The notes beneath the pieces are model-generated. The model did no database searches. It was not told the origin of the DNA and worked only from the letters and a program-made list of their open reading frames with translations. Positions 1 to 24,338 of a stretch of DNA of 64,000 nt are shown in pieces. The position numbers and the translations under genes were made by a program. The stretch lies in IMG/VR virus record IMGVR_UViG_3300021961_000020, one strand, 5' to 3'. This DNA comes from a virus. Each line of letters starts with the position of its first letter. Position 1 is the stretch's first letter.

Positions 1-150
1 GGTCTCATCTTTTATATTATGATAGTGCCAAGAACATCTCTTTCCTTTCTCAAAGAAGAGAAGTTTGCCACAGTACTGTTCATTATTTACAATCCACTTC
101 TCGTATCCCCAACCTTTGGGAACCTCTTTAATAGTCTGAGAAGAATTCAT
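1..150 (-). CDS. Cupin-fold sugar isomerase-like protein, 5' part (runs off the window edge)
   Basis: Hand translation MNSSQTIKEVPKGWGYEKWIVNNEQYCGKLLFFEKGKRCSWHYHNIKDET; KxWGxE, YCGK and SxHYH are typical of cupins found next to NDP-heptose genes. Not in the ORF track. Confidence 0.75.
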   Translation of the reverse strand, partial: MNSSQTIKEVPKGWGYEKWIVNNEQYCGKLLFFEKGKRCSWHYHNIKDET

Positions 151-460
151 TTGCATTGACTCCCTTATCATCTATGTAGTAATCACCCGATGGTTTTCCT
201 AGGTGAAGTTCATGAAACTTACAACCCCATTCTTTAAGTTGATTGTATGTAAAGTCATAGAAATTATTATGAGAAAGCATGCGAGAGTTTTTAAACCTTC
301 CCATACCTCTTGCTGTAAGATAGGTAATGTAATGCCCCTCATCATATAGTTGATTAATTCTATCAATTCTTTCTTGGATGGGGGCAGCACCAGTATACCT
401 AGTTTCGTCAGTAGATCCAGGAGTACAGATAGTACCATCTATGTCAATAGTATATCTCAT
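128..460 (-). CDS. HAD-superfamily phosphatase (capsule biosynthesis phosphatase-like)
   Basis: DIDGT motif I, TAR motif II, GKP...YIDDK motifs III/IV. Confidence 0.8.
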   Translation of the reverse strand: MRYTIDIDGTICTPGSTDETRYTGAAPIQERIDRINQLYDEGHYITYLTARGMGRFKNSRMLSHNNFYDFTYNQLKEWGCKFHELHLGKPSGDYYIDDKGVNANEFFSDY

Positions 461-2292
461 TCGGAATCATCCACTAAACTATAGTTAATCTTCCCTCTTT
501 TACCAGCGTTTGAATTTTCTGAGATGTACAGCATCTTTTTTTGGTTGGGGAAGTAAGTGTATTCTAATTCCGATCTTTGCAAAGTTTCAATCACATCATC
601 AACTGTTTCACAAATAGTATCTCCACCTAGATTAAATGAAGTATTAAGTAGCATTGGAATACCAGTTCTCTTGTAAAACTCTTCGATCAAATCATAGTAA
701 TTTTTATTCTGTTCTCTAGATACTGTTTGAATTCTACAAGTTTTATCGACATGCAAAACTCCAGGAATTTTATCCCAAACTTTCTCATGAGCATTGACGG
801 CAAACATCATGAATGGACTTTCATCAAGACCACGCATATCAAACCAGTCATGAACATGATCTAATAGTACGGATGCTGCAAAGGGTCTCCATAACTCACG
901 ACCTTTCTTTTTGTTCATTATAAGTTGTGCATTTGGATTCCTAGGATCAAATAACAATGATCTATTACCAAGAGCACGAGGTCCCTGTTCGGATCTCCCC
1001 TGAAAGATTCCTACTGGATTACCATTCTCAATAACATCAACTACTTCAGAAAGAGTTGTGTCATACGCGCTTTCTGGAATATCATGTTGTCTTTCAATTC
1101 CAAGATACAAAGATTTCAAAGGATAAATTTCCTTTGATTGTGTATGCTGTCTCCATTCAAGCATTGCTTGACCAGCAGATAAACCAGCATCATAACAAAT
1201 TGGTTCCACAAACAACTTACCACCTTCAGGCAAATACTTTAGATACTCATAGTTAGCAACACAATTTAGAGCACACCCACCAGTCAGAACAATGTTCTTA
1301 CATCCAGTAAGTTCCACTGCCTTTTTAATGAGATCAATCATATAAGACTCAAAGTCTTTTTGCATCCTGTAAGCAAGATCACAATTAACAGAAAATTTAA
1401 TTCTAGGATCCTCAACTTGATCTGGAGCAGTAAGTGCTGGACCTGATCTAACTATATCATTTTCATCTCTACTACATCTCTTCACACCATCATTGTATAG
1501 TTTATATAAATCTATTTTTCCTTCAGGGTAAATGTATTCATAGTAATCGATCAGTACTCCATTAGAAACTCTAACAAATAATTCTTCATTAACTTCTCCG
1601 TTAATTACAAATGGTTTTATGTTTGGATTATCCTTTCCATATGGAGCGAGTCCCATTGTCTTTCCAGACGCAGTATAATTAAATCCAATGTATTCACTAG
1701 CAGCAGCATAAGCCATACCAATTCCAGTGGTAGGATTTTCTACTTGCTCTTCGGTTTCAATAAAAACTGGCGCATATCTTTGATGTAGCAATTCAAAGTT
1801 GCATGGATAGGATGCTTTATAAATGCTTTCTACCTCATGACCACCACCAATAATTGCTCCAGCACCATCCACAACTACAACTGCCGCTTCTTCAAATCCA
1901 GAGTTATAGAATCCAATAGATGCGTGAGAAAGATGGTGTTGGTTTTGAAATGATTTGCATTTATACTTATTTTTTCTCATAACTTTTGATGCTACAAGAA
2001 GACAGATATCGATGGAATCATCGACCATCTTCTTCTCCATTGGTATCTCAATGGTAGTATAAGCAATCAAAGAGTCTTTAGAAATAAATGCGTTGCCATA
2101 TAAAAGCGACAACAAAGGATATGAATCATGCTTTCTATGGCTAAGTCTTTCTTCCTCAATCATCCATTTGACTTTACCGTCTACAAGATAGCAAACAGAT
2201 GCATCGTGAGCAATATTCATAGAAAAAATACTATTCACATTTTCTGGCAAAATTTTTACAGCAGACTGATTTTGTAAGGAGATTTCTTTCAT
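457..2292 (-). CDS. Carbamoyltransferase, NodU/CmcH/TobZ family (copy 1)
   Basis: HDASVC, EEERLS, HHLSHA, VVVDGAG, GKTMGLAPYG, GGCALNCVAN, GPRALGNRS, RPFA, LNTSFN. Confidence 0.93.
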   Translation of the reverse strand: MKEISLQNQSAVKILPENVNSIFSMNIAHDASVCYLVDGKVKWMIEEERLSHRKHDSYPLLSLLYGNAFISKDSLIAYTTIEIPMEKKMVDDSIDICLLVASKVMRKNKYKCKSFQNQHHLSHASIGFYNSGFEEAAVVVVDGAGAIIGGGHEVESIYKASYPCNFELLHQRYAPVFIETEEQVENPTTGIGMAYAAASEYIGFNYTASGKTMGLAPYGKDNPNIKPFVINGEVNEELFVRVSNGVLIDYYEYIYPEGKIDLYKLYNDGVKRCSRDENDIVRSGPALTAPDQVEDPRIKFSVNCDLAYRMQKDFESYMIDLIKKAVELTGCKNIVLTGGCALNCVANYEYLKYLPEGGKLFVEPICYDAGLSAGQAMLEWRQHTQSKEIYPLKSLYLGIERQHDIPESAYDTTLSEVVDVIENGNPVGIFQGRSEQGPRALGNRSLLFDPRNPNAQLIMNKKKGRELWRPFAASVLLDHVHDWFDMRGLDESPFMMFAVNAHEKVWDKIPGVLHVDKTCRIQTVSREQNKNYYDLIEEFYKRTGIPMLLNTSFNLGGDTICETVDDVIETLQRSELEYTYFPNQKKMLYISENSNAGKRGKINYSLVDDSE

Positions 2293-3083
2293 GAGTTCAA
2301 AATAGAATCAACATCTTCCATGGTCATAGTGTATGTACCAGGATTTTGAACGGCAATTGCAGCTGCTCTATTTGCAAAAGCAATTGCTTCTTCCATGACT
2401 GGAAGTTGAATGTGATAAAACACAAGGGCAGCGAGAAAGGTATCACCTGCGCCAGACACATCGAACACACGCTCAATTTCTTTTACAGGATATTGAGTCT
2501 TGTTCCAGATGCATCCATTAGCACCCATGGTTACAATTAAGTTAGTAGCTTTGGGGATAGTATTAGGATCTAATGCTTCAAATTCTTTTTGATTAATCTT
2601 GTAGATGACATTATCATATTCAGACAGGAGTCTGGTTGCTTTCGTATCTACAAATACTTTGATCTTAGGATTTCTACTGGCGACATATGAAATAACTTCA
2701 GAAACATTAAGAAACCCTTTGTTATAATCGGAGATTACAATGGCATCATAGATCTCATGCATCAATGCCATCTGAAGTTGTGCCTGATGGATTGGTTTTA
2801 TATCAGGTTCTTCATCTACACGAACGATCTGCTGATTAGTACGCTCATCAATGTATCTTGTCTTAGTAATCTTCTCTTTATTAGTTACGAAGTTTACATT
2901 AATACCAAGAGACTTTAAATTTTCACAGACATTGCCTGCCATACCAGGAGCAGATTGCTTCTGACGATGCTTAAGAACAGGTACGGGTGCCTCTGGACTC
3001 AAGCGATTGCATGATCCATAAATCCATTCATCGGTACAACTATCCCCGATCAATAATACATTGTATTGTCTTGCTAGTCGCAT
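2289..3083 (-). CDS. PfkB-family sugar kinase, HldE/RfaE kinase-domain-like
   Basis: RLSPEAPVPV, GMAGNV, ISDYNKG, DVSGAGDTF. Confidence 0.9.
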   Translation of the reverse strand: MRLARQYNVLLIGDSCTDEWIYGSCNRLSPEAPVPVLKHRQKQSAPGMAGNVCENLKSLGINVNFVTNKEKITKTRYIDERTNQQIVRVDEEPDIKPIHQAQLQMALMHEIYDAIVISDYNKGFLNVSEVISYVASRNPKIKVFVDTKATRLLSEYDNVIYKINQKEFEALDPNTIPKATNLIVTMGANGCIWNKTQYPVKEIERVFDVSGAGDTFLAALVFYHIQLPVMEEAIAFANRAAAIAVQNPGTYTMTMEDVDSILNS

Positions 3084-3441
3084 AGTCTTCTAATCTATCA
3101 AAGAATTTTAATTCTGCTGAGTGCATCGACCCAATGACTGTCTTTCCTTTCCAGTCAGATCCTACTACCATTATATCAGGTTGTATGGTTTTAACCAAGT
3201 CTTCTAATTCTTGATCGCTGGAAAAAGAAAGTACTTTGTCTACAGTTTTGAGAGACTGTAACATTATGATTCTATCTATGCATGAATTAATAGGTCTTGT
3301 CGGACCTTTCATCTCCTTCACCCTACTATCGGTATCGATAGCAACGATAACCTCATCGCCAAGAGACCTTGCATAAGAAAGAAGTGCAAGGTGCCCACGA
3401 TGAAGGATATCAAATGTACCGTTGACAAATACTCTAGTCAT
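3040..3441 (-). CDS. Cytidylyltransferase-fold nucleotidyltransferase, HldE/RfaE domain II-like
   Basis: NGTFDILHRGH, KGPTRPIN, VVGSDW. Confidence 0.9.
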   Translation of the reverse strand: MTRVFVNGTFDILHRGHLALLSYARSLGDEVIVAIDTDSRVKEMKGPTRPINSCIDRIIMLQSLKTVDKVLSFSSDQELEDLVKTIQPDIMVVGSDWKGKTVIGSMHSAELKFFDRLEDYATSKTIQCIIDRG

Positions 3442-5257
3442 TCTTAACAGTAATCAGTTTACCATACTCAGGAAGATACAAATACTCGATACCAGAGTTA
3501 GCAAGAGTACGCACAGCGTCGTCAAGGGTCTCAACCAAAGGTTCACCACCAAGATTGAAACTGGTGTTAAACAGAATCGGACAACCTGTAGCATCATAGA
3601 ATGCTTTGATGAGTCTGTAGTAGTTTTCATTCTGCTTTTCGGTAACAGTTTGGATTCTACATGTGCCATCAACATGAATGATAGAGGGAATCTTTTCTTC
3701 GATTCCAGGTTGACAATTCACAGCGTACATCATGTGAGGAGTCTCTTCCATTCCACGAAGATCAAACCACTCATGAACATGCTCTTGAAGCATTGATCCA
3801 GCAAACGGACGGAAGAATTCACGACGCTTAATTTTATTTACATGATCCTTACCATCAGGATCACGGGGATCATAGAGAATAGAACGGTTACCAAGAGCAC
3901 GAGGACCAGATTCAGATCTACCTTGGAATAAAGCAACAATATTTTTGTCAGTAATCAAACCAACAATATCTTCGTCCTTTGCTTCGGTAACTTCTCCACC
4001 ATACTTGTCAGCGGTATCAATGATACTATTAATATCATATGTATATTTTGGACCAAGGTATAGACTTTCTGCGTATGGTTTAATATTTGTGTCTCCAGTT
4101 GTAAAGTGATGCCAGAATAAAGCAGCACCGATAGCAGTTCCAGCATCATTACTTACTGGTTCAACATAAAGACTGATACCTTCGTCTTTTAATTCATCGA
4201 GATAATAATAATTAGCAACGCAATTTAGACCATACCCCCCAGACAAAGCAACATTTTTAATTTGGGTAAGGTTAACCGCAAACCGAATTAAATCAAGAAC
4301 CTGTTTTTGAGTTTCTTTTTGAACTTTATATGAAAGATCTTTACGATTCTGAAGTCTTACCAAATCTTTACGATCAATGTCTATTGGAGTCGCCAACTCT
4401 TTATTAAGTTGATCACAAACGAGTGCTCCATTAGGATATGTTGGAGTAATAAACTCTTGATTTACTTGTTTATAGTGAGGAAGAAACTCATTAGACTTAC
4501 CAAAAATGTCTGGGAGATTCTCATTTTCTTTTCCATAAGGGAAAAGTCCCATAGTTTTACCTGCTTCAATGGAATCAAATCCATTGTACCGCGTAACTGC
4601 CTCATAAGATTTTACAATTCCAGCAGAAGAGTCCGCAATCAGAATACAACTTGATTCATCAGAAGTATCAAACTGTTTATTATCAAATGCAGTTTCAACG
4701 AGGAGTGGTCTAAGACCATTTCCACCTAAGTGCCTATACTTTGATTCTATTTTTGCAGGATATGAGCAATTAAAAACAGTTTCTGTTTCCCAAAGTGTCA
4801 TTGGGCGACCGTCAACAGAATGACTATAAAAAGTTCCTGCACCATCAACGACTACAGAAACCGCTTTATCAAAACCAGAACGATAGAATGCACACGCAGC
4901 GTGAAGCTTGTGATGAATATTTCCAAGATCAATTACTTGGGGGTGAGTTTGAGTTTCTGGATTATAATTTACATCACTACGAATCAAACCCAACTTTCTA
5001 GCTAGTGAAGTATATGCATCTTCACCACAGTAATCTAACTTGGCAGCACTCTCTGCCAGTAGTTGAGTATGGGCAACCACTAAGTAGTCCAATTTATCAG
5101 TATATTCTTTTATTTTAAGAATGGATAAAAGAGGTGCTCCATCGTATTTCATACGAGAAAATCTTTCTTCCTCGATAGCAAATACTACTTCCCCATTTTT
5201 TAACAAGCAGACACCTGCATTATGTCCGCGAGTAATACCAGCAATCCATTGAGTCAT
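3434..5257 (-). CDS. Carbamoyltransferase, NodU/CmcH/TobZ family (copy 2)
   Basis: GHNAGVC, EEERFS, HHKLHA, VVDGAG, GKTMG, GGYGLNCVAN, GPRALGNRS, NTSFN. Confidence 0.93.
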   Translation of the reverse strand: MTQWIAGITRGHNAGVCLLKNGEVVFAIEEERFSRMKYDGAPLLSILKIKEYTDKLDYLVVAHTQLLAESAAKLDYCGEDAYTSLARKLGLIRSDVNYNPETQTHPQVIDLGNIHHKLHAACAFYRSGFDKAVSVVVDGAGTFYSHSVDGRPMTLWETETVFNCSYPAKIESKYRHLGGNGLRPLLVETAFDNKQFDTSDESSCILIADSSAGIVKSYEAVTRYNGFDSIEAGKTMGLFPYGKENENLPDIFGKSNEFLPHYKQVNQEFITPTYPNGALVCDQLNKELATPIDIDRKDLVRLQNRKDLSYKVQKETQKQVLDLIRFAVNLTQIKNVALSGGYGLNCVANYYYLDELKDEGISLYVEPVSNDAGTAIGAALFWHHFTTGDTNIKPYAESLYLGPKYTYDINSIIDTADKYGGEVTEAKDEDIVGLITDKNIVALFQGRSESGPRALGNRSILYDPRDPDGKDHVNKIKRREFFRPFAGSMLQEHVHEWFDLRGMEETPHMMYAVNCQPGIEEKIPSIIHVDGTCRIQTVTEKQNENYYRLIKAFYDATGCPILFNTSFNLGGEPLVETLDDAVRTLANSGIEYLYLPEYGKLITVKND

Positions 5258-6258
5258 TTTCCAAATCCTTTAGGTTCACAACAAGTTTTAGTATTTTTTT
5301 CTTGGTTAATATTTTCGTTGGAATATTTTTTTGGTTTTCCAAGACGCTTTCTACACGAAGCAATTACTTTTTTGATATCTTCTTCTGTCATCTCCATGCA
5401 TTCATCGTTCATCATATCTTGATAGTCTTCCATTGTCAACCTAATGGGAGAAAAAATTCTTTTCTCTGCACCAAGATCAATAATATCAAACATTGGATCG
5501 TTTGGATATGAAATATTTTCAGGATAAGTGGATCCAATTACAGCAGTGACTGTAGTACCAACTGATTTGGCAATGTGTTGACCAACGGAATCACAACCTA
5601 AGAAATGATCTGCTTGTTCAATAATGCCTGCCCAAACACGGATGTCAGCTTGAGGCCAAGCACATGGAATCTTGCTAGTATCGACATCAACTGGAAACTG
5701 AAACTCACTCATTATGACAACACCATAATCTTCTCTAAGATTATTAATAATATCTACAATATAACTTAGATGAAAACTTCTAGAAGAAGGATCAATAATA
5801 TATTCACCTTCAACTTGAACTCCTCTACCAAAAGGTTGAATAACAATTACTTTATCCTTCCCACTCTTTGCCTTTACTTCTTCAATTACATTAAGAGCAT
5901 AGATTGCTTCTGACTTGGTGATCTTAATTTTAGGTGCAGGAAGATTTCTGGGTTCTTCCAAACCGTTAATTTCTAGATCAAACGCTTGGGCGATATTACA
6001 CTTCTGATTATAATAGTGCCACTGTCTATATGGTTCAGGAGTTACACAATCTCTATTTTTAATATAGTCTTCGAAAAGATTTTTATGCCAATTATCGAAG
6101 GCATATTTATGGAGAATAGGATGACCTTTGAAGAAATTCATACCACCTTCACAGACAATGATAAAATCATCATGCTTTTCTGCATACCTTTCAAATGCAG
6201 GGATGGAACAAATTACACGACCAGCGCCACCATTAATAAAGAATGCTTTTGATCTCAT
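5254..6258 (-). CDS. GT-B glycosyltransferase, GT9 (heptosyltransferase)-like
   Basis: C-terminal ADHFLGCDSVGQHIAKSVGTTVTAVIGST matches the GT9 signature; likely ATG start MRSKAFF at 6258 (track start is a TTG at 6273). Confidence 0.75.
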   Translation of the reverse strand: MRSKAFFINGGAGRVICSIPAFERYAEKHDDFIIVCEGGMNFFKGHPILHKYAFDNWHKNLFEDYIKNRDCVTPEPYRQWHYYNQKCNIAQAFDLEINGLEEPRNLPAPKIKITKSEAIYALNVIEEVKAKSGKDKVIVIQPFGRGVQVEGEYIIDPSSRSFHLSYIVDIINNLREDYGVVIMSEFQFPVDVDTSKIPCAWPQADIRVWAGIIEQADHFLGCDSVGQHIAKSVGTTVTAVIGSTYPENISYPNDPMFDIIDLGAEKRIFSPIRLTMEDYQDMMNDECMEMTEEDIKKVIASCRKRLGKPKKYSNENINQEKNTKTCCEPKGFGK

Positions 6259-6278
6259 GCTAATTTCAATCAACGAGT

Positions 6279-6315
6279 TATTTAGTTGGTTGCTAATACT
6301 AGATATTATAGCACA
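6279..6315 (-). promoter_or_regulatory. Tandem sigma70 extended -10 (TGTGCTATAAT) and T4-type late promoter core (CTAAATA) upstream of the GT9 operon
   Basis: Plus strand tatttag at 6279-6285 and attatagcaca at 6305-6315. Confidence 0.6.
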
Positions 6316-6329
6316 AAATCCTCAGACAT

Positions 6330-6362
6330 AAAAAAAATCTGGGGAAATTTTTTCCCCAGATC
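6330..6362 (-). terminator. Intrinsic terminator after tail-assembly gene
   Basis: ATCTGGGGAAA/TTTCCCCAGAT inverted repeat followed by a T run on the minus strand. Confidence 0.8.
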
Positions 6363-6386
6363 TTGAAATTAAAAATCGTTTTTAAT

Positions 6387-7178: not shown

Positions 7179-8042
7179 TTACTGCCAGTAAGATACGACT
7201 ACAAGACCAGATCCACCAAAACCACCCCAGCAGCAGCTACCGTCAGTATGAGCGGAAGATCCACCACCACCAGGGAAGAGTGCGTGTCCTCTACAGCAAC
7301 CGTGATTGTTACCAGCAGAGCAGTTATCATCCATCATACCACCCCAAGTTGCCCACGGACCTACAGCAGATCCAGCAATTGCACGGTGGTCGTTACGGCA
7401 ATAGCTGGTGTTAATTCTCATGCCATTAACACCTCTGATACCAAAGGAGCGATCTCTATTGTCAACACAGTTTGCACAAGAAGTAGTAATGATACAAGGA
7501 CCAGAACACTGTCTCATGTGAGAACATGCATAACAGTTTTGACTACAACGGTGGTGTCCCCAAGATCCGCCTTGAGCGCAGAAGTTACTCATACCACCAG
7601 CACCACCATCGTAAGGAGTTACGAAGGTTGTACATCCTTTAGCTCCGCAGCAGTTAAATCCAGTAGAATATCCGCAGCAAGAACAAGAGCTACCACCAGA
7701 ACAAATAGTATAACGACTAGATCCAGGAGTAAAATGCCCACAGTGAGAAAAGACTGTTCTTACGGCATAAGATCCAGAACCACCAGCAGGACCGCTACCA
7801 CAACAAAGTCCAGGAGATCCAGATCCTCCTGAACCAGTCAACTCAAATCGAACTGATCGAGTATTTGCGGGTACTGTCCAAAGAAGGCAACATCCTCCAG
7901 TAGCAGAATAAAAATCACTATGATATACATAAAACTGGTGAGCGACAGCTGTCGATAATCCGACTACTTCATTCGAAGTTACAGACCCAGCAATTAGCGC
8001 CTGGTTACCTTGAATCTTTTTATAACTCTGATAATTTGCCAT
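7179..8042 (-). CDS. Gly/Cys-rich tail-associated structural protein
   Basis: WTVP...FELTGSGGSG, PGGGG and GGSGLVVVSY glycine-rich-domain pattern; 26 Cys counted; late promoter upstream. Confidence 0.6.
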   Translation of the reverse strand: MANYQSYKKIQGNQALIAGSVTSNEVVGLSTAVAHQFYVYHSDFYSATGGCCLLWTVPANTRSVRFELTGSGGSGSPGLCCGSGPAGGSGSYAVRTVFSHCGHFTPGSSRYTICSGGSSCSCCGYSTGFNCCGAKGCTTFVTPYDGGAGGMSNFCAQGGSWGHHRCSQNCYACSHMRQCSGPCIITTSCANCVDNRDRSFGIRGVNGMRINTSYCRNDHRAIAGSAVGPWATWGGMMDDNCSAGNNHGCCRGHALFPGGGGSSAHTDGSCCWGGFGGSGLVVVSYWQ

Positions 8043-8127: not shown

Positions 8128-11100
8128 TCAGACGGTGATGATTCTCCATCCACGAGTTGCATCATAGAAGACCAGTTCAAATGCAGCACCCTCGGTGGAT
8201 ACTGTCAGGTCAGCATTGTCGCCCATGATTGGGTTGCTATTTCTAGCGATCGTCAGGTTGGCAGTATCGAATGTCTTGTGAGTATCGAAGATTCTAACAG
8301 AGTCACCCTTGATTGGATTGCTGGGCAGAGTGATGGTGAAAGCACCACTAGAGGTATTACAGAATGCCTGCTGTCCAGGAACAAGAGTAGTACCGTTACC
8401 GCTTACATCAATGTTTTGCCACTGACCAACAGCATACCATCTGGAACCATCATAGTATTCGAATCTGTTGTAGTCATTATCGTAACGGAGACCACCTTCA
8501 AGGAGATCAACGCCAGTTGGACGAGCAGCTTGAACACCACGAGGAGGAACGAGGATACCGCTCGTGTTATCCATCTTACCGCGAGTCAGGAATCCACGAG
8601 TCGCTTTCTCAGTAGGACATGCGGTGTTAGAGTCGCCACCCAGAGTTTCATCAGAGGAGAACTCGTTAACTGCCTCACCAACCTGACCGCCGATAGCACC
8701 CAGTCTCAGTTCTGTAAGACCAGACAGGTTGAACGCGGAGGCATCCAGGGTAGCAGCACCAGTCAGCTGGTTAACCGAGAAGAATTCACCAACTCTGAAG
8801 TTACCACCTTGGTCGGTAGAAACATAGAAGATCTTACCAGAGTTTATAGTGTTAACTTCGTTACCCTGAGAAGCAGTGTTCTCGTCAACATCAGGATAGT
8901 TGGTCAGAGAAGTGTTACCAGTACCGATCAACAGGAAGTCATGACCCGTCAGACGAACCTTGGAGAACTTAGTTCTCATCAGGAACGCTTGGTTATCGAA
9001 GGATGCAGGAACAGAACCCTTACCAGGAGCAATGTTGATTGTAGCACGACCAGTTCCAGAATCGTAGTTAGATACGGTTCTGATGATGTAGGTGTTGGAG
9101 TCAGAGAATCCGAGACCAACAGTGGTGAATCCAAGAGCATCACCAACCTTAGGTGTCGTACTCAGACCAGTGATCTCGAAGAGAATGTCCTTCTGACCAG
9201 AGACGGCGGTGGAAGTAGACTTGATCTGGAAGTAACCAGTTGCACCAGCACCAACAGAATCAAGTTCAACATACTCACCAGGAACGAAGACGCTAGTACC
9301 AATACCAACAGCACCGTTAGCGCCATCGGGGTTACCGAAACCAGCGTTATACTTGAAGTAGATTTGCTCACCCGAGATCTGTTCGTTGGTTACAACAGCA
9401 CGAGCACCCGATACAGTACCACGCATGGTAGCACCAACAGTGATGTCTCCTACAGGAGTACCAACAACCAGTTCTAACTTATCACCATAGAGGCGACCAG
9501 ATCTAGCAACCTCAAGAGTAGAGAATCCAACAGCAAGAGCACCATAATCACCGTAAGAGTTGTTACCCGACAGAGAACGGATCTCAGAACCGTCATCGGA
9601 AACATAACCGAAGGCACAGTAGTAGGTGAAGCAGGATACGATCTCAGCAAGAGCGTCGTCTTCTAACCAGAATCCTACACCACCAGAGTGAATGTGGGTG
9701 AATGCGTCGAACACCATCGACTTAGCACCCGATCCTTCAGGTTTACCTTCGTGCTTACCACCTTCGATCCAGACACCGATAGCACCACCGTGACCAGTTC
9801 CATCAGTACATACATCAGAGAAAGCAGTACAGTCTTTGATGTAAGGAGAGCGGTCAAGGATAGGAGTATCAGGATTCAGTCTGAAATAGACACCAGTAGC
9901 AGTGGTTCCCAAACCAACTTTGCTCTGCCACTTATCAGTGTTGAAAGGATCGAGAGTATCATAAGAGAATCCTTGCAGACCACGGAGGGTCAGTGCCTGA
10001 ACGGTGCAAGAGTCGGAGACGAAGAACATCGTCTGACGGGAGTTGGGAGTTACACCATCAGTAGAAACACCAGCAGCAGGTTCAATGATTGTACCTCTAA
10101 GAACATCACCTGCGATGTTGAAGTTCTTAGGCAGTGTGATGGGCAGTTGCTCTCTGAATGTACCAGCAGAGAGTTTCAGGATAACAGGAGATACATCGGT
10201 AACATGACCACCGCTTACATAAGAGTGAGCAATAGTGGAGATACCAACATTGGTTACGAAGGTATCAGAGTCAATTACACTATCAACTCTAAAGAAGAAT
10301 CCTTGTGTACCATCAGGGAAGATAGTGGTGGTGACACCAGCATGTTCCGTAGCACAGGTGAAAGCAATACCACTCAGTTTTACCTGACCAGCTGCAAACA
10401 GACCGTGCCCAGCAGCAGTGATGGTAGCAATACCAGTGCTCTCATCATAGGTGAATGCGCTAATATCTCTTACTCTTTGAGCAGCAGTAGATGCATAAGA
10501 AATTGTGCCCCATGCAGACTCAGGAGTAAGTCCAACATTATCGTTATCACCTTGCTGAGCGTCAACATAGTAAACCTTGGTACGAATACCAGGATAGTTC
10601 CACTCAACTTCATCAGAAGAAGATACTCTCAGGAATGTACCTTGTGTACCAATACCCTGTCTGGTAGGACCAGTCGCGTTTCTTGTGAGGATATCGCCTT
10701 TGGTGGTCAGCAGAGCAGCACTATCACCAATGGCAAATGCTTGCCACATGGTAACAGCAGTACCAGGGGTTACATTCAGGTTAGAAGAAGCAACCGAAAC
10801 ATAAGTAGAAGAAGAATACTCGGCAAGATCACCAATTTCATAGTATGTGCCAGAATTCCAAGTGCCCTTCCAACTTTGTCCACGAGAAATAAGAGACCAT
10901 CCATTTACACCAGTATCTACAGAGGTAATAGCGAGACCAACAGGTCTGTTATTAACATCAATGAGAGTGTTGTCAGCAATATAAGTATTACCACCAAGGG
11001 TTACAGTTTCTCCTCTGGCATATGTTTGAGAAGGATCATAGACACTGGCTCCGCCAGTGCCGATACCACCCATCAACAGAGCCCACTGACTTACATTCTC

Positions 11101-11790
11101 AGCAGGAGCATCTGCATAAGGATTGGTTCCAATAGCTACATAAGAAGCACCCCTGTATTCTACGAGGTCTCCTCTTTCATATCTTGTAGTACCATCCCAC
11201 TTTAATTTATTTTCAAATCCCTTAGCAAACGGATCAAAGTTAGATGCGGGGGGATAGAATCCATCAGATCCAATACCAGTCGGATCATGAGGAGAAGTGG
11301 AGATTCCCTGCATTGAATAGTCTGCAGGGACTTGGAAAGGAGAAGTACAACGATATGTATAGGGACCGTAAGAAACTACAGCGTTGATACCGTAGTAAGT
11401 ATCTGTTGTGAACGCACCCTTGAAACTCAGACCTTCATGATAAAGATCCCAGTAAGCAGGGAAGTCGGAAGAATACCAGCTGCTTTCGATACCAATCGAA
11501 GTATGCTGAGCGGTACAGATGTAGAGGTTACCGCCTTCCTTTACGATGTCATCAAGGACATACGCTGTGCTGGGAGTCCAGTTACCAGCATTCTCCATAC
11601 CTTTTGTATGGAGCGACCAGTATGCTGCGTCGGTGGGAAATCCGTTGGAAGCAGAATCTGAAGTATGGTTGCTTGTGCAAACATATGAATTGGCACCGTA
11701 TCTAACGATGTCATCAATTACATATGCAGTAGAAGCAGCCCAGGCTCCACGCCAGTTAAATTTCAGTCTGCCAAGTCTAAATTCTGCCAT
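8128..11790 (-). CDS. Large tail fibre/virion structural protein with N-terminal W-x4-T-x-Y-x3-D-x-V repeats and a central beta-helix-like domain
   Basis: Repeats such as WAASTAYVIDDIV, WTPSTAYVLDDIV, WNSGTYYEIGDL; YYVDAQQGDNDN and RSPYIKDCT region typical of cyanophage fibres; C-terminal GAFTITLPSNPIKGDSV...GWRI. Confidence 0.75.
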   Translation of the reverse strand: MAEFRLGRLKFNWRGAWAASTAYVIDDIVRYGANSYVCTSNHTSDSASNGFPTDAAYWSLHTKGMENAGNWTPSTAYVLDDIVKEGGNLYICTAQHTSIGIESSWYSSDFPAYWDLYHEGLSFKGAFTTDTYYGINAVVSYGPYTYRCTSPFQVPADYSMQGISTSPHDPTGIGSDGFYPPASNFDPFAKGFENKLKWDGTTRYERGDLVEYRGASYVAIGTNPYADAPAENVSQWALLMGGIGTGGASVYDPSQTYARGETVTLGGNTYIADNTLIDVNNRPVGLAITSVDTGVNGWSLISRGQSWKGTWNSGTYYEIGDLAEYSSSTYVSVASSNLNVTPGTAVTMWQAFAIGDSAALLTTKGDILTRNATGPTRQGIGTQGTFLRVSSSDEVEWNYPGIRTKVYYVDAQQGDNDNVGLTPESAWGTISYASTAAQRVRDISAFTYDESTGIATITAAGHGLFAAGQVKLSGIAFTCATEHAGVTTTIFPDGTQGFFFRVDSVIDSDTFVTNVGISTIAHSYVSGGHVTDVSPVILKLSAGTFREQLPITLPKNFNIAGDVLRGTIIEPAAGVSTDGVTPNSRQTMFFVSDSCTVQALTLRGLQGFSYDTLDPFNTDKWQSKVGLGTTATGVYFRLNPDTPILDRSPYIKDCTAFSDVCTDGTGHGGAIGVWIEGGKHEGKPEGSGAKSMVFDAFTHIHSGGVGFWLEDDALAEIVSCFTYYCAFGYVSDDGSEIRSLSGNNSYGDYGALAVGFSTLEVARSGRLYGDKLELVVGTPVGDITVGATMRGTVSGARAVVTNEQISGEQIYFKYNAGFGNPDGANGAVGIGTSVFVPGEYVELDSVGAGATGYFQIKSTSTAVSGQKDILFEITGLSTTPKVGDALGFTTVGLGFSDSNTYIIRTVSNYDSGTGRATINIAPGKGSVPASFDNQAFLMRTKFSKVRLTGHDFLLIGTGNTSLTNYPDVDENTASQGNEVNTINSGKIFYVSTDQGGNFRVGEFFSVNQLTGAATLDASAFNLSGLTELRLGAIGGQVGEAVNEFSSDETLGGDSNTACPTEKATRGFLTRGKMDNTSGILVPPRGVQAARPTGVDLLEGGLRYDNDYNRFEYYDGSRWYAVGQWQNIDVSGNGTTLVPGQQAFCNTSSGAFTITLPSNPIKGDSVRIFDTHKTFDTANLTIARNSNPIMGDNADLTVSTEGAAFELVFYDATRGWRIITV

Positions 11791-16855: not shown

Positions 16856-17968
16856 TTAGAGACCTGTCAAGGGATGTACATTGTCAATCCAGTTACGGAA
16901 ATAGGTGGTGTACCAATGACCATAAGTAGGTGTATCGTCATTGATCAGTTCAAGTCTTGACTTAGACTTTGCATCAGTGATGAAATCGAAGAACCGCTGA
17001 TCATAAGAATGAGAGCGACTCATCTCCTCCGCTGCTGACCAGAACATTGTAGCATACTTAGACCCGTTAGCGTAATGCCAGAGGATGAAATTCTGTACCT
17101 CTTCGACATCTGTCACAAGCTCTTGGAGGATCGACCTCTTTGATCTTCCATCAAAGATCCATTGGCAAACTAAAGAAGTCCAACGATAGTATGTTTCAAC
17201 CGAACTCGCTTCTAATGGTTCGATAAACAACAACCTATTACCATTCAAGATAACCTTATCATTTTGAATTGGTTTCCTGGCAAGATAGTTATTGAAATGC
17301 AAAGTATCGGTCGGAGTAACACCAAACATTTTTTGTATGTTTACTTTTGCTTCTTCATTGGAAGTGTATTTGTTGTTGTACAAATATCCATACGAAGTAA
17401 ATCCTTTGTTGGGTATGCCGAAGCACCACCCGTCTGGAGTAGCAATACAACGAGTCCAGTGCTGATCAGGATCTCTGTAACTGTCCCGACCTAAGACAAC
17501 ACTGTTCAAAGGATTCTTAAGGATGTTGTAATAAGAAAAATCTTTAGGAGTTCCTCTACAGTCAAAGACATAATCGCAATCCAATTCATTGCAATCATCA
17601 ACATGTCTTTCTATAAATTTACATACCTTCTTTGCAATCATACACTCTCTCAGTTTGTCTGGAGAGTAGTGTATTGCCATGTAATCCATGGGAAATGGGT
17701 TGAAGAACTTATCTTTCTTCTTTCCCCATCCCTCATACAAAATTCCTGATTTAAATGTGGCGTCGATCTCATTGTTATACCAATCGACACCAAGAATCTC
17801 ATGAATAAGACCGACAAAGTTTACTAAAGATCCCTGTCCTACTTTCTCAATAGGAATCTTAGGATCGTAATAAACTTCAATCTCTACATCTTGACCGTAA
17901 GTTTCTCTAATCAAAAATAGGGCAACGACTAAACCGCCGTTGCCCCCACCAACAACACCAATTTTCAT
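16856..17968 (-). CDS. FAD-dependent tryptophan halogenase-like protein
   Basis: GGGNGG, VGQGS, DATFKSGI.YEGWG, DGWCFGIP, FIEPLEASS. Confidence 0.85.
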   Translation of the reverse strand: MKIGVVGGGNGGLVVALFLIRETYGQDVEIEVYYDPKIPIEKVGQGSLVNFVGLIHEILGVDWYNNEIDATFKSGILYEGWGKKKDKFFNPFPMDYMAIHYSPDKLRECMIAKKVCKFIERHVDDCNELDCDYVFDCRGTPKDFSYYNILKNPLNSVVLGRDSYRDPDQHWTRCIATPDGWCFGIPNKGFTSYGYLYNNKYTSNEEAKVNIQKMFGVTPTDTLHFNNYLARKPIQNDKVILNGNRLLFIEPLEASSVETYYRWTSLVCQWIFDGRSKRSILQELVTDVEEVQNFILWHYANGSKYATMFWSAAEEMSRSHSYDQRFFDFITDAKSKSRLELINDDTPTYGHWYTTYFRNWIDNVHPLTGL

Positions 17969-18401: not shown

Positions 18402-18950
18402 TTACTCTTCGTCTTCTTCTTCGAGACCCAAATGTTCTTTGATCCTCTTATAAACATTCAGAGGAGTTGATTCTTCATAAGGATCTCCCACATAATTGTG
18501 TGATAGACCTTCTTCATCGAACATCAGTTCAATCTCACCGTCAACAACATAAGCAGCATAACGCCAAGAACGATTACCGAATCCGATGTTAGTTTTCTTA
18601 ACGAGCATGCCAATGCCATCGGCAAGTTCAGCATTCCCGTCAGGAATCATTTCAACTTTAGTAATCTCAAGAGACTTTGCCCATGCTTCCATCACATAGT
18701 CGTCGTTAACACTGGTGCAATAGATTGCATCAATACCAAGATCCTTGACGAACTTATCGTAGAGATCTTCATATGCGGGAAGCATTTCGTTGGTGCAGGT
18801 AGGAGTAAATGCACCAGGAAGTCCGAACAGAATTACTTTCTTTCCAGCAAAGTAATCTGCAGTATCAACGATTTGATACTTCTCCATCTCACCATTCTCA
18901 TCAGGAACAGGAGATCCTTGAAGGTGGAATCTTGCGTGGGGAATTCTCAT
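18402..18950 (-). CDS. Peroxiredoxin (Prx5/type II)
   Basis: LPGAFTPTCT, CTSVND.YVM.AW, IPDGNAE, RSWRYA. Confidence 0.92.
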   Translation of the reverse strand: MRIPHARFHLQGSPVPDENGEMEKYQIVDTADYFAGKKVILFGLPGAFTPTCTNEMLPAYEDLYDKFVKDLGIDAIYCTSVNDDYVMEAWAKSLEITKVEMIPDGNAELADGIGMLVKKTNIGFGNRSWRYAAYVVDGEIELMFDEEGLSHNYVGDPYEESTPLNVYKRIKEHLGLEEEDEE

Positions 18951-20811: not shown

Positions 20812-21612
20812 TTACTTCCCTTCAAAACCAGGGGGTAACCGACCAAGGTAAGGATTGAGATCGAAGAACTGATTCCAATCTTCAACCATGTTAGCATCGT
20901 TCCTCCAGAAATTCCAAAGGGCATCATGACAATTACGATGGAACACATCGATATGCATGTCATGAATGTCTGACCCAAGAGCAATCTTATACATTAAGAT
21001 TGGCATGGCATAGGTCAGACCACTGTTGTAGAGAAGATCATCAGCAACAGCGCGTGGTTTAATTCTACCATCTAGTTTGTACTTCCCATTCTTAGTATAA
21101 AGATCGAGAAGTTTATGACCATACCTGCGATTAATGACATAGGCAGCTGTTGAAAAGTCATTTACGAAGCGATAATGCATCTGCATGACAGGCATCGCAG
21201 GGTTGATGATTGCAATCTGGAGACAATCCCATGCAGCAGGTGCATGGCGAAAGAAATCTTTCCAAGAAAATGGCCAATGCTTGACCACTTCTAGATCGCA
21301 ATCATCTTCCATCATTATAGCATAATCATCAGTGGAAGTTTCCAACCAATGTTGAATTGCTTTGAGGTGAGAAGTTACACAACCAATCTCACCCGATGAC
21401 ATATTGTCTGGATATTTACCAGCAATAATATCACTCAGGTCATCATGACGACCGTCATAGGCAGAGATCCTAGTATGTTTTTCAATTTGCCAATATGCAA
21501 ATTGATCTTCCATAAACTTACGACGATCTGTTTTATCGTCTAAGTTCAACCAATAGATATGAGGAATGTCTTTGAGTTTTGGTGCAGATTTATTTTTGTC
21601 CATGCTTAGCAA
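20812..21612 (-). CDS. Glycosyltransferase family 25-like
   Basis: YWLNLD..TDRR, RISAYDG, GEIGCVTSH, MMEDD. Confidence 0.85.
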   Translation of the reverse strand: MLSMDKNKSAPKLKDIPHIYWLNLDDKTDRRKFMEDQFAYWQIEKHTRISAYDGRHDDLSDIIAGKYPDNMSSGEIGCVTSHLKAIQHWLETSTDDYAIMMEDDCDLEVVKHWPFSWKDFFRHAPAAWDCLQIAIINPAMPVMQMHYRFVNDFSTAAYVINRRYGHKLLDLYTKNGKYKLDGRIKPRAVADDLLYNSGLTYAMPILMYKIALGSDIHDMHIDVFHRNCHDALWNFWRNDANMVEDWNQFFDLNPYLGRLPPGFEGK

Positions 21613-22543
21613 TCACTTCGTTCACATTAGGTAGGTAATGGTTTTGCAGGACATTAGTCCAATCAAACTCTTTAGCATACTCTAGGATCTCTTCCCGATG
21701 GGAGACTGAATACTCCCTGTTCTTGATTATAGCATACTCAACATATTCCACATCATCAATCTTTGATTCTGGAATAACTGTAATAAACTCACGATCAAGA
21801 TCCAGGTTTGCTGTAGCAAACTCACTGACCACAACACCGAGACCAGAAGCAAATGCTTCCATGATAACCAGAGAGTGTGCCTCACCATCAGACAGGAGCA
21901 CAAGGTTACCATAGTCAGTCAGATAGTCATGGAGATATTCTTTCTTCCATTCACCGAGATAGTTTTTGTTAGCATTGAACCTCTTGTCAGCAATGTTACC
22001 AGCAAAGAACAGACTGTCGATGGACTGGAACTTATGCTGACGCTTACGGTAGTCAATCTTGGCAAGGTAGATACTACGGTCAGGGAACTCTGGTTCATCC
22101 GTGGTGCGGAAGAGATCTAGGTTTACACCATTAGGAACGATAGCAAGTTTCTCTTCTGGGATATCACCAAAGAATTGATACGCTTTCTTGATGCCTTCGG
22201 AGAGGCAGAAGACATTCGGTTTAGTCCGTTGGAAGTGACCGAAGATCTGCCCATACCCATTCATCTTGTCTGGGCGTTCGATGTAGGCAAAGTGGGTGGT
22301 ACACGCACAAGGATATTGCACATAAGGATAGAGAACAACCCAGTCGTCATAATGAATATGCACGAAATCAGGGCGAAACGCATTGATTCTCTTGATGATC
22401 TCTCTAGGATCTGAGACATTGATGATGTCAACTTCATGACCTAACTTCTCCAAGGTAAGTTTGTAGTCCCAGATAAGACTCTCTACTGCTCCCCAACCTA
22501 CGGGAGGGATAGGAGTGGCGGGACCAACGATAGAGAATCTCAT
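21590..22543 (-). CDS. GT-B glycosyltransferase (GT4-like)
   Basis: IPPVGWGAVE, VPNGVN, EAHSLVIMEAFASGL. Confidence 0.8.
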   Translation of the reverse strand: MRFSIVGPATPIPPVGWGAVESLIWDYKLTLEKLGHEVDIINVSDPREIIKRINAFRPDFVHIHYDDWVVLYPYVQYPCACTTHFAYIERPDKMNGYGQIFGHFQRTKPNVFCLSEGIKKAYQFFGDIPEEKLAIVPNGVNLDLFRTTDEPEFPDRSIYLAKIDYRKRQHKFQSIDSLFFAGNIADKRFNANKNYLGEWKKEYLHDYLTDYGNLVLLSDGEAHSLVIMEAFASGLGVVVSEFATANLDLDREFITVIPESKIDDVEYVEYAIIKNREYSVSHREEILEYAKEFDWTNVLQNHYLPNVNEVIAKHGQK

Positions 22544-23517
22544 AGTAACGACTGCAACTTCGGAATGTATTCATAAGCAAGAATGTTTTCAAGACCGAAT
22601 TCGTAAATGCCGTATTCTCTGATCTCTTTTCTATGCTGCTTAGATACTTTTTTATTGTTCTCGATTGTCTCAAGAACATATTCAAGGTTATTTATTTTGC
22701 TTTCTGGGATTACATCAATCCAAGGTTTAGAAGTGTCAAGTTCAGGAGCAACTGCTTCCGAACAAACAACACCAAGTCCACAAATCAATCCCTCTTTAAT
22801 AACAAGAGGAGTGGTATTCTCAACTTCACTCAAGAGAGCAATGTTTGAATAGCAAGTAATGTACTCATTGAGTTTTTCTCTAACGACTTCTCCCTTATAG
22901 TTCTTATTCCTCTTATCAAACTTACCACCAAACTCCATGCGACCCATAAAGTCAACGCTATCAATTTTCTCTAGGAGATACTGACGCTTACGGTCTACAA
23001 TCTGAGAGAAGCAAAGAGTTCTATCCCAACTAGCAAACTCATCAAACTTATAAGGTTCGGGGCGAACTCCTAGTTTACTCAACCAGACACGATTAGGATT
23101 AGCACCAAGACTAATCCAGGTATCAATATCTTTCTGAGATGAACAGAAAATATGATGCTTTCTATTAGCAGCAATTTTTTGAGCGATGGGTCCATAACCA
23201 TCTCTACCCCACATATGTGGAGTATTAACATATGGATAATGACTAGAGACGATCAGTGCTCCGCATAAAGGAGCCAGGTCATCAATGATGTCATGGAAAA
23301 CATCATAATGAAGGTGAACAATGTCATACTTTCCGTGAGCAACTTCAAATTTGATTAGTTCCCTGTCGGGAGTGTTAATGATTTCAACACGATGACCCAA
23401 GTCTCTAAGGATCATGGTGTAATCCCAGATAAGCATCTCTACAGCACCCCACCCATCAGGCGGAATCTGCATAATGCCAGGACCAATCAAAGCAATTTTC
23501 ATCTGTAAGTCTCCCAA
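22540..23517 (-). CDS. GT-B glycosyltransferase (GT4-like), paralog of the neighbouring gene
   Basis: IPPDGWGAVE, ENTTPLVIKEGLICGL. Confidence 0.8.
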   Translation of the reverse strand: MGDLQMKIALIGPGIMQIPPDGWGAVEMLIWDYTMILRDLGHRVEIINTPDRELIKFEVAHGKYDIVHLHYDVFHDIIDDLAPLCGALIVSSHYPYVNTPHMWGRDGYGPIAQKIAANRKHHIFCSSQKDIDTWISLGANPNRVWLSKLGVRPEPYKFDEFASWDRTLCFSQIVDRKRQYLLEKIDSVDFMGRMEFGGKFDKRNKNYKGEVVREKLNEYITCYSNIALLSEVENTTPLVIKEGLICGLGVVCSEAVAPELDTSKPWIDVIPESKINNLEYVLETIENNKKVSKQHRKEIREYGIYEFGLENILAYEYIPKLQSLL

Positions 23518-24338
23518 TACATCGTCTCTTTAATTTGATTAACAAATCCAGGGCTATGTGCAATAAGTGATGGAATGTTTTGGTATGCTGCATGGAAGGC
23601 AAACACTTTTTCGTATTCATCTTCCTGAGGATTCTTACCATACCAAATACCATCAACAAGTTTCATGTCTTGTTGAGTTGCCGCAGCACAATGATTGAAT
23701 GCACCGTTAGTAAATTTATATCCGCCAACTTCGTTCATGGCAAGACAGAGAACAAGCTCGTCTGTGACACCATCATGCAATCCACCATCACCAAAGATGT
23801 CATTAAAGATTTCCATGTAACGAGTAAACAAATTATCATGCTTACCCTTCTGAAAAAGGAATGCTCCCGACGCAGCATAGTCATAGGTACTAAGATCCTC
23901 TGGAAAATATTTTCCAAGTCCAGTCTTATCTACTTGAACTTTACGGATATAATCTTCTAGGGTAGGCACCCACCAGTGACGGGCAATCAAGAAATCATCT
24001 TGTGCCTCTTCAATCAATTGATCAACACGATCATTGACAACTACACAATCGGTATCAAGATAGATGCAGTAGTCAGTTTCTACATGCTTGAAGACATTAT
24101 AACGCTCCGCCCAAATGTGTGGTTGAAACCAGTTACGATCATCCTCATTACGAATAGCATCAGCATTTGCCTTGACAATCTTTACTTTAGGATCATCGAT
24201 ATCCAACCGATCATCCATATCAAGGATAACAATTTCATGATCTTGTTCGATCCTCTCAAGGGATTCACAAGCCCTCATCAAATTCTTATAGTAACTATCA
24301 TCGCCACCAACGATGAATCCAAAACTCAGTTTAGTCAT
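23499..24338 (-). CDS. GT-A glycosyltransferase-like
   Basis: IYLDTDCVV DxD motif. Confidence 0.6.
   Translation of the reverse strand: MTKLSFGFIVGGDDSYYKNLMRACESLERIEQDHEIVILDMDDRLDIDDPKVKIVKANADAIRNEDDRNWFQPHIWAERYNVFKHVETDYCIYLDTDCVVVNDRVDQLIEEAQDDFLIARHWWVPTLEDYIRKVQVDKTGLGKYFPEDLSTYDYAASGAFLFQKGKHDNLFTRYMEIFNDIFGDGGLHDGVTDELVLCLAMNEVGGYKFTNGAFNHCAAATQQDMKLVDGIWYGKNPQEDEYEKVFAFHAAYQNIPSLIAHSPGFVNQIKETMYWETYR

Follow-up and report, generated by a model that had tools for sequence, protein, structure and literature searches.

The window, as we call the whole stretch of DNA analysed here (64,000 nucleotides of the virus record IMGVR_UViG_3300021961_000020), opens with an operon of seven overlapping genes on the minus strand (positions 1–6273). 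From their family and PDB matches, the encoded enzymes read as an ADP-heptose-type pathway joined to a GT9-fold transferase and to O-carbamoyltransferases. On this evidence, we consider it very probable that a nucleoside diphosphate (NDP)-heptose-type sugar is made, transferred and carbamoylated. Concerning the acceptor, carbamoyl-heptosylation of a virion protein of the fibre tip is favoured over remodelling of the host envelope, a preference that we hold with about even confidence.

Probable sugar-activation enzymes and the proposed isomerase

As a fragment of a T4-like cyanomyovirus, the window carries psbA, psbD, genes of the hli region and T4-type structural genes, and at the nucleotide level it matches Synechococcus and Prochlorococcus myoviruses only. 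An earlier reading of the letters without database searches (hereafter the sequence-only reading) had listed the seven genes as a GT9-like transferase, a carbamoyltransferase, an HldE-like nucleotidyltransferase, an HldE-like kinase, a second carbamoyltransferase, an HAD phosphatase and a cupin, and all of them were re-found in this order as open reading frames (ORFs; Table 1). The six junctions among them all overlap (by 4, 8, 44, 4, 4 and 44 nucleotides). For the GT9-like gene, the longest ORF begins at a TTG codon at position 6273 (5254–6273, 339 amino acids); the ATG at 6258 is the likelier start, since the resulting 334 amino acids correspond to the length of an identical database protein (P0001). 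The same arrangement (GT9-like transferase, carbamoyltransferase 1, nucleotidyltransferase, kinase, in some cases carbamoyltransferase 2, HAD protein, cupin and a convergent epimerase) recurs in P-SSM2, S-SSM7 and S-CAM3 as well as in some 20 IMG/VR loci. The genes, which the sequence-only reading expected to travel together, are strongly co-conserved across these metagenomic loci and three cyanophage genera.

Three separate enzymes, the kinase, the nucleotidyltransferase and the epimerase, each match an ADP-heptose enzyme best. For the kinase, the top family is rfaE_dom_I (TIGR02198; 1.5e-46, 159 bits against an equivalog cut-off of 345 bits) and the closest PDB structure is 4e84, a D-beta-D-heptose 7-phosphate kinase (4.9e-17, against about 1e-6 for ribokinases); the phage enzyme retains the catalytic motif GAGD and is without about 30 positions of the TIGR02198 profile (68–96). 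The nucleotidyltransferase has rfaE_dom_II (TIGR02199) as its top family (6.8e-33, 113.5 bits against an equivalog cut-off of 181.5 bits), with a far weaker match to the glycerol-3-phosphate cytidylyltransferase family (3.4e-17), and its closest PDB structure is 5x9q (5.5e-18), which we take to be Burkholderia HldC. The region past base 1 was read from L006, the closest IMG/VR relative (kinase 92% identical), and not from the window phage; there, a cupin of 126 amino acids is followed by a convergent SDR enzyme of 262 amino acids and then by a subtilase-containing structural protein of 1648 amino acids. The top family of the SDR enzyme is TIGR02197 (ADP-glyceromanno-heptose 6-epimerase; 1.2e-54, 185.6 bits against a cut-off of 274.6 bits), with GalE at 3e-11, and an HldD-like epimerase was found in all 20 loci that extend that far. 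The sequence-only reading had pointed beyond base 1 for both hldD and gmhA: the former is present in the closest relative, while no GmhA was found.

The HAD protein retains all four HAD motifs (DIDGT, of the DxDxT type, as motif I, plus the T, K and DD motifs). In NCBIfam it matches TIGR01689 alone (EcbF-BcbF capsule phosphatase, 2e-7), and its PDB relatives are the small capless HADs 9iqw (6.8e-10) and 1xpj; by these NCBIfam and PDB searches it does not belong to the GmhB/histidinol-phosphatase subfamily. Our literature search found no paper for the PDB entries 9iqw or 7xb6, the latter a match of carbamoyltransferase 1 described below. The retained catalytic motifs make a phosphatase role plausible, and a GmhB-like step is proposed; the public label "phosphoheptose isomerase" looks like a misnomer.

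Compared with the bacterial ADP-L-glycero-beta-D-manno-heptose pathway (GmhA, HldE or HldA plus HldC, GmhB and HldD), the phage kinase, nucleotidyltransferase and epimerase match their counterparts best and an HAD phosphatase is present in the operon, but the HAD is of another subfamily (TIGR01689, 9iqw-like), the kinase and the nucleotidyltransferase are encoded by separate genes, the kinase is shortened, the scores lie under the equivalog cut-offs and there is no SIS-type GmhA. A gene for the latter (TIGR00441, E ≤ 0.01) is absent from five complete genomes (P-SSM2, S-SSM7, S-CAM3, S-T4 and G156, a complete 168-kb contig of a distant T4-like phage), nor was one found in the cassette by Pfam/NCBIfam searches. 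In the 151 host-family genomes sampled, a GmhA-like gene occurs in 35 (116 are without it) and an HldE-like gene in 26 (125 without).

The last gene of the operon is cut by the window edge, and its full-length orthologue was read in L006 (L006:11078-11458, Cupin_2). The metal site of the cupin, of the 3His-1Glu type, is intact (His49, His51, Glu56 and His97 are invariant or nearly so), and all loci of sufficient length for scoring have the gene together with those for the kinase, the nucleotidyltransferase and the epimerase. The only function-specific families matched are sugar aldose-ketose isomerases, namely those of D-lyxose isomerase (19 of 20 members, weakly) and of mannose-6-phosphate isomerase (2 of 20). 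In the fold search, D-lyxose isomerases (24–25% identity) come out on top together with the CapF cupin, with undiscriminating scores (about 1e-8 to 1e-7 for CapF cupin, D-lyxose isomerases, KdgF, quercetinase and oxalate decarboxylase). Since there is no GmhA in the phages, none in most of the sampled hosts, and an always-linked metal cupin, this protein is the likely sedoheptulose-7-phosphate isomerase, substituting for GmhA. The public label "cysteine dioxygenase" looks like a misnomer. The cupin is abundant in ocean metagenomes, where it forms 4801 sequence clusters.

Recent capture of the cassette from a host island was considered and rejected. The host HldE-like genes encode fusions of about 510 amino acids in which the domain order is reversed and which share 23–28% identity with the phage kinase, and for these two reasons they are not its source; near them we found no homologue of the cupin, the HAD protein, the carbamoyltransferases or the GT9-like transferase, and the transferase family was not found at all in the 151 host-family genomes. 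The fusion, a nucleotidyltransferase-kinase in the reverse order of HldE, is carried by about one in six of the sampled picocyanobacterial genomes (G001:C1:1006000-1025999, our locus L113, and 25 others), with a GmhA-like gene a few kb away in the cases compared (e.g., G001, G016 and G042), which suggests a heptose-type pathway of host islands separate from that of the phages.

A GT9-fold transferase and two carbamoyltransferases

The GT9 label given by the sequence-only reading is supported by fold and motif, and not by membership of a sequence family. At E ≤ 0.01 the transferase matches no Pfam family, PF01075 included, and a stretch of 40 residues matches TIGR02201 (heptosyltransferase III) weakly (8e-4). 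Its AlphaFold model, built with a family alignment of 69 sequences, has a pLDDT of 93.6, and in a Foldseek search of the PDB all of ranks 1–30 are GT9 enzymes (best E 1.8e-11), among them 3tov (Veillonella GT9), 1psw (WaaF), TibC and WaaC. The family profile matches WaaF and WaaC alone in the PDB, and the invariant Asp228 of a CDSxGQH motif aligns with the heptose-binding Asp261 of WaaC. The nearest Atlas clusters are viral, with PF01075 on 22% of the members in one of them. The family comprises thousands of sequence clusters and is abundant in ocean metagenomes; it is acidic (median pI 6.0), whereas the heptosyltransferases of lipopolysaccharide (LPS) are basic.

Both carbamoyltransferases score well above the Pfam cut-offs for PF02543 (Kae1-like, N-terminal) and PF16861 (YrdC-like, C-terminal), and the closest PDB structures of carbamoyltransferase 1 are 7xb6, the novobiocin carbamoyltransferase 9s2t, TobZ and GdmN. 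Over both paralogue groups, 159 positions are invariant, including His12, His115/His116/His119, Asp138, GPRALGNRS and NTSFNLGG, residues that we take to be the metal and carbamoyl-AMP sites of TobZ as Parthier and colleagues described them in 2012. The difference after the N-terminal histidine noticed in the sequence-only reading (HDA in one copy, HNA in the other) proved real and fixed within each group of the alignment, carbamoyltransferase 1 having H-N-(A/G/S) and carbamoyltransferase 2 H-D-A. In every locus, G156 included, carbamoyltransferase 1 directly follows the GT9-like gene; a full-length carbamoyltransferase 2 between the kinase and HAD genes sets the window apart from its other relatives, being shared with L008, L011, L012, L013 and L014 only. 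In a maximum-likelihood tree, built from hand-checked coordinates, carbamoyltransferase 2 forms a separate clade on a long branch from the transferase-adjacent clade (100/100 support), and the latter also contains the copies of G156, P-SSM2, S-CAM3 and S-SSM7. By its sequence, carbamoyltransferase 2 is an old accessory paralogue, present in some relatives only. Since the two enzymes are distinct old paralogues, the two acceptor positions put forward by the sequence-only reading are a reasonable guess.

Other forms of these genes were noticed. Shortened carbamoyltransferase genes (332–379 amino acids) occupy the position of carbamoyltransferase 2 in some relatives and in S-SSM7 (L024:10782-11777, L030:317-1453 and L002:9740-10849), and forms with the C-terminal domain only occur in many other cyanophages. 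The sugar-module carbamoyltransferase of G156 is divided into overlapping ORFs of 310 (N-terminal) and 199 (C-terminal) amino acids (L029:7895-9353); a frameshift, an error in sequencing or a true split may lie behind this.

The sequence-only reading also raised carbamoylation of a modified DNA base, and we regard it as highly improbable that one or both carbamoyltransferases act on a hydroxymethylated base, with or without a sugar from the GT-B enzyme. T4 beta-glucosyltransferase is a GT-B enzyme acting on DNA, and a dCMP deaminase gene of G156 is located some 3 kb away from the carbamoyltransferase that belongs to the sugar module. However, PF00303 (ThyA/dCMP-hydroxymethylase) is absent from the four complete carrier genomes (P-SSM2, S-SSM7, S-CAM3 and G156) and from one partial genome, and the "td" gene near the cassette has an RHR...SQRY motif, which presumably identifies it as ThyX. 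A phage NodU-family enzyme that carbamoylates 5-hydroxymethylcytosine in DNA has been established experimentally in metavirome phages, with the same two-domain NodU/TobZ architecture (Yang et al., 2021; PMC8670742), but genes of ThyA-like hydroxymethylase, MazG-like and deaminase type are linked to those DNA-active enzymes, and it is the carbamoyltransferases of unmodified contigs that are flanked by glycosyltransferases, as here (PMC8670742). In the window, the carbamoyltransferases adjoin genes of sugar-nucleotide enzymes and of a glycosyltransferase rather than nucleotide genes, and in more than 20 loci both carbamoyltransferases lie within a nucleotide-sugar operon.

The closest solved NodU/TobZ/GdmN/novobiocin carbamoyltransferases all come from natural-product pathways, which argues for a soluble small molecule, e.g., a carbamoylated heptose metabolite akin to the heptose units found in septacidin or hygromycin, with no macromolecule decorated. 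A tryptophan halogenase and several 2-oxoglutarate (2OG)-Fe(II) oxygenases in or beside the S-SSM7 cassette and nearby in the window point the same way, and ADP-heptose is reported to feed natural-product pathways of this kind (PMC9978623). Such a product is nevertheless improbable: the cassette has no polyketide synthase, non-ribosomal peptide synthetase or nucleoside-building genes, the halogenase and oxygenases are inconsistently linked to it, and the tight linkage with fibre genes would be left unexplained.

Virion protein or host envelope as the acceptor

We infer each chemical step of the pathway, and its acceptor, from computed gene content, folds, synteny and absences. The metal cupin would convert sedoheptulose 7-phosphate, an intermediate of the Calvin cycle and of the pentose-phosphate pathway, to heptose 7-phosphate, in place of GmhA; the HldA-like kinase would phosphorylate it at O1, the small HAD enzyme would remove the 7-phosphate and the HldC-like nucleotidyltransferase would form ADP-heptose, of which the HldD-like epimerase (encoded just past base 1 in relatives) would give the L,D form. 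The phage-specific GT9-fold enzyme would then transfer the heptose to the acceptor. Carbamoyltransferase 1 would O-carbamoylate the heptose from carbamoyl phosphate and ATP, as in TobZ, and carbamoyltransferase 2 may contribute a second carbamoyl group or modify the sugar at a different position or stage. As the most likely acceptor we propose a virion protein of the adjoining fibre/adhesin/chaperone block, which would be modified in the cytoplasm at a late time of infection.

The tail-fibre neighbourhood described by the sequence-only reading was borne out, with the genes for a chaperone-domain protein (Phage_tail_APC in the Pfam search), a glycine-rich protein and a CBM_5_12 fibre directly upstream of the operon (Table 1). 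In 15 loci, the fibre, the glycine-rich protein, the chaperone and the transferase follow one another in this order; across loci the glycine-rich protein is 37–78% identical and the fibre 60–91%, and the glycine-rich and chaperone-domain proteins both diverge much faster than the fibre. In the distant G156, the GT9-like gene, carbamoyltransferase 1 and an HAD gene are directly followed by the genes for neck, gp15, terminase and sheath, and a second carbamoyltransferase lies 31 kb away among replication genes, together with the nucleotidyltransferase, kinase, cupin and epimerase. N4-like vibriophages and an Aeromonas phage also have homologues of the transferase, with the hallmark residues retained, within their tail-gene blocks; in these phages neither the sugar genes nor carbamoyltransferases were found, and their hosts make ADP-heptose. 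The kinase gene is present in all cyanophage isolates that have the GT9-like gene; five phages with the kinase are without the latter. All proteins of the cassette are computed to be soluble and acidic.

The signals ahead of the operon bear on the time of its expression. A late-promoter-like motif (CTAAATAA), a sigma-70-like element (TGcTATAAT) and a terminator-like hairpin fit in the 113-nucleotide gap in front of the cassette, with the same layout in L012, and in most relatives a DUF6445 gene ends shortly ahead of the late-type motif. Ahead of the transferase start, the motif CTA[AT]ATA[ACT] is found at a distance of 25–27 nucleotides in 15 of 20 loci and of 18–49 nucleotides in 3 more; all 13 of its occurrences in the window are on the minus (coding) strand and none is on the plus strand. 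The cyanophage late motif was published as NATAAATA (PMC2984593), and the conserved form seen here differs from it by one mismatch, C for A at position 2. ATAAATA is not enriched (15 found against 14 expected). The distribution of the conserved form fits a strand-specific variant of the late promoter.

The published interpretation of the P-SSM2 "LPS genes" is a different one (PMC2984593; PMC3037559; PMC7029224), namely that the host envelope is remodelled. In that case, the GT9-like enzyme would add carbamoyl-heptose to an outer-membrane glycolipid or surface polysaccharide of the host, and the effect would be a block of superinfection, less grazing, or no re-adsorption of released virions to the infected cell. 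Characterised GT9 enzymes, with the exception of the TibC/AAH group, all act on LPS cores; the sugar genes of S-T4 and S-SM2 lie within multi-glycosyltransferase clusters typical of polysaccharide synthesis, and the window itself has a glycosyltransferase cluster at 20.8–30.7 kb. The sigma-70-like element ahead of the operon and the minority of host genomes with heptose-type genes and weak GT9 matches also speak for the envelope. We consider this alternative rather unlikely, for cyanobacterial LPS has been reported to be without Kdo (3-deoxy-D-manno-octulosonate) and heptose, the usual GT9 acceptor (PMC4390846), so that the "host LPS" named as a target by the sequence-only reading is a misfit in the usual sense. 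Moreover, the glycan clusters of the window have no lipid-carrier transferase or multi-spanning membrane protein, and no flippase, polymerase or ligase is encoded in it; the transferase and carbamoyltransferase 1 hold their position at virion blocks across distant phages; the transferase family is acidic, unlike the LPS enzymes; and the late-type motif is conserved, late expression being poorly suited to early protection of the cell.

Several observations weigh against modification of a virion protein by carbamoyl-heptose. As for the sugar, the kinase, the nucleotidyltransferase and the epimerase all score under the equivalog cut-offs, and it could therefore be a non-heptose, and the CapF cupin, a nucleotide-sugar epimerising enzyme, matches the phage cupin as well as the isomerases do, which makes a CapF-like epimerase role on the nucleotide-sugar possible. 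As for the acceptor, adjacency to fibre genes is circumstantial, and in T4-like cyanophages this region is a hypervariable zone that gathers auxiliary genes (PMC7029224). The clusters of S-T4 and S-SM2 mentioned above are large, lie near hli and have no GT9-like gene. Given the sigma-70-like -10 element, expression of the operon may not be purely late. An acceptor neighbour common to the cyanophage loci and those of the vibriophages and the Aeromonas phage was sought and discarded, the transferase being all that they share.

For the chemistry of the product, the best precedent is the 7-O-carbamoyl-heptose of the Pseudomonas LPS core, where HepII is carbamoylated by the NodU-family enzyme WapO (PA5005), encoded beside the GT9 genes WaaC/WaaF; this is the only well-described natural O-carbamoylated heptose, and GT9 and carbamoyltransferase genes share one locus as in the phage (PMC8005017). 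The acceptor of that system is the Kdo2-lipid A core reported absent from the cyanobacterial hosts (PMC4390846). The phage transferase, in contrast to the Pseudomonas GT9 enzymes, forms a separate, phage-restricted family without a Pfam GT9 match, and the likeness to WapO is one of family and locus. For a protein acceptor, the TibC/AAH enzymes (BAHT family) are the precedent, since they have a GT9-type fold and O-heptosylate protein from ADP-heptose, and TibC is among the top fold matches of the phage transferase. The latter is, however, shorter (about 310–340 against about 400 amino acids), its fold is no more similar to TibC than to WaaF/WaaC, and among the columns of the 69-sequence alignment that are invariant or nearly so there is no cysteine, whereas TibC/AAH have a conserved iron-binding cysteine cluster and a dodecameric assembly. 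Freeman and colleagues are said to have found in 2023 that cytoplasmic glycosyltransferases of mycobacteriophages decorate virion proteins (capsid and tail-tube), an instance of such a system in tailed phages; transferase families, sugars, hosts and targets differ from those of the window phage. A literature search on heptosylation of phage fibres found nothing relevant.

In a wider and more tentative picture, which we hold to be possible rather than probable, the cyanophages, whose hosts are mostly without heptose, would bring their own pathway with a cupin for GmhA, O-heptosylate their fast-evolving receptor-binding fibre-tip proteins by means of a phage-only GT9-fold enzyme made along with the late genes, and cap the sugar with one or two carbamoyltransferases, and the bare vibriophage transferase would do likewise with ADP-heptose of the host. 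What the cyanophage "LPS genes" do has been asked ever since the P-SSM2 genome appeared in 2005. Should the fibre protein be the acceptor, the operon would encode a new family of protein-directed heptosyltransferases and a non-SIS heptose isomerase, and the virion would be the first to be heptosylated and carbamoylated, with a glycan that tunes host range or shields the fibre tip; such decoration would add a post-translational layer to the host range of viruses that control Prochlorococcus and Synechococcus. If the envelope were remodelled instead, this would be seroconversion by a lytic phage in hosts normally without heptose.

The published cassette and the features of the window

The operon is not a new discovery, as its presentation in the sequence-only reading might have implied: it corresponds to T4-GC 302-308, annotated in P-SSM2 (PSSM2_307-313), S-SSM7 (SSSM7_120-133), S-CAM1 and S-CAM3 and discussed as "LPS genes". 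GC 304, 305, 307 and 308 were noted to co-occur and to be probably functionally linked (Sullivan et al., 2010; PMC3037559), alteration of the host surface by these genes was restated by Clokie et al. (2010; PMC2984593), and a genome note of 2020 lists genes for "heptose-related LPS synthesis" in another cyanophage (PMC7378029). Genes, order and place (distal fibre to neck genes) are identical in the published cassette and in the window, with 44–69% protein identity over all eight components; the published records carry the transferase as "hypothetical", in addition to the two labels questioned above for the HAD protein and the cupin. The cassette itself is thus known, and what is new is the window as a member with two carbamoyltransferases.

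The window is also without the pair of DUF6445 and 2OG-oxygenase genes that precedes the transferase in most relatives. There, a 2OG-Fe(II) oxygenase (PF13759/PF13640) and DUF6445 stand before or inside the cassette (L006:5464-6808, SSSM7_122/132 and PSSM2_314), and the two proteins might be hydroxylases of the acceptor ahead of glycosylation.

Table 1. Positions in the window of the operon genes, of the signals ahead of them and of the adjoining fibre-side genes.
Feature	Position	Strand	Basis or remark
Cupin, N-terminal 57 codons, cut by window edge	1..171	-	ORF; phrog_7851
Predicted capless HAD-type phosphatase, 110 amino acids	128..460	-	HAD motifs, TIGR01689, 9iqw, 1xpj, phrog_1238
Carbamoyltransferase 2, 611 amino acids, NodU/TobZ family	457..2292	-	PF16861 3.8e-55, PF02543 1e-22
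HldE domain I / HldA-like PfkB sugar-phosphate kinase, 264 amino acids	2289..3083	-	TIGR02198, 4e84
HldE domain II / HldC-like nucleotidyltransferase, 133 amino acids	3040..3441	-	TIGR02199, PF01467, 5x9q
Carbamoyltransferase 1, 607 amino acids, NodU/TobZ family	3434..5257	-	PF16861 1.3e-60, PF02543 2e-25
Phage-specific GT9-fold transferase, 334 amino acids from ATG at 6258	5254..6258	-	Predicted fold, profile
Late-promoter-like motif CTAAATAA	6278..6285	-	27 nucleotides upstream of ATG
Putative sigma-70-like extended -10 element TGcTATAAT	6305..6313	-	Read from sequence
Intrinsic terminator-like hairpin, 14-bp stem and T run	6334..6364	-	Closes upstream fibre/chaperone unit
Protein with tail-fibre assembly chaperone domain, 257 amino acids	6387..7160	-	PF16778 3.4e-9; within the candidate acceptor block
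Glycine-rich adhesin-like protein, 287 amino acids, candidate acceptor	7179..8042	-	PF21722 (Gly_rich_2) 4.9e-6
Tail fibre, 1220 amino acids, two CBM_5_12 modules, candidate acceptor	8128..11790	-	PF02839 2.6e-17
CTA[AT]ATA[ACT] sites	6285, 8082, 12658, 18389, 20066, 29793, 30778, 32266, 34281, 35706, 44628, 55599, 57876	-	Motif scan

Elsewhere in the window, the larger glycan cluster (20812–30655, minus strand) consists of ten tightly packed genes, with a GT25, two GT4-like, a GT1-like, a GT6 and a GT11 glycosyltransferase, an Fcl-like epimerase/reductase, a sugar C-methyltransferase and a GDP-mannose 4,6-dehydratase. As a whole, it is a set for GDP-fucose, fucosyltransferase and GT6, and it encodes no multi-spanning membrane protein. 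A tryptophan-halogenase-like gene (16856–17968, minus strand) and a peroxiredoxin gene (18402–18950, minus strand) adjoin psbA and psbD; in S-SSM7, the halogenase is located within the heptose cassette. Finally, a contig binned in a gammaproteobacterial metagenome-assembled genome (L061, NYUL01000008.1) has a psbA gene that shares 94% identity with the phage copy and is probably a mis-binned cyanophage or cyanobacterial contig.

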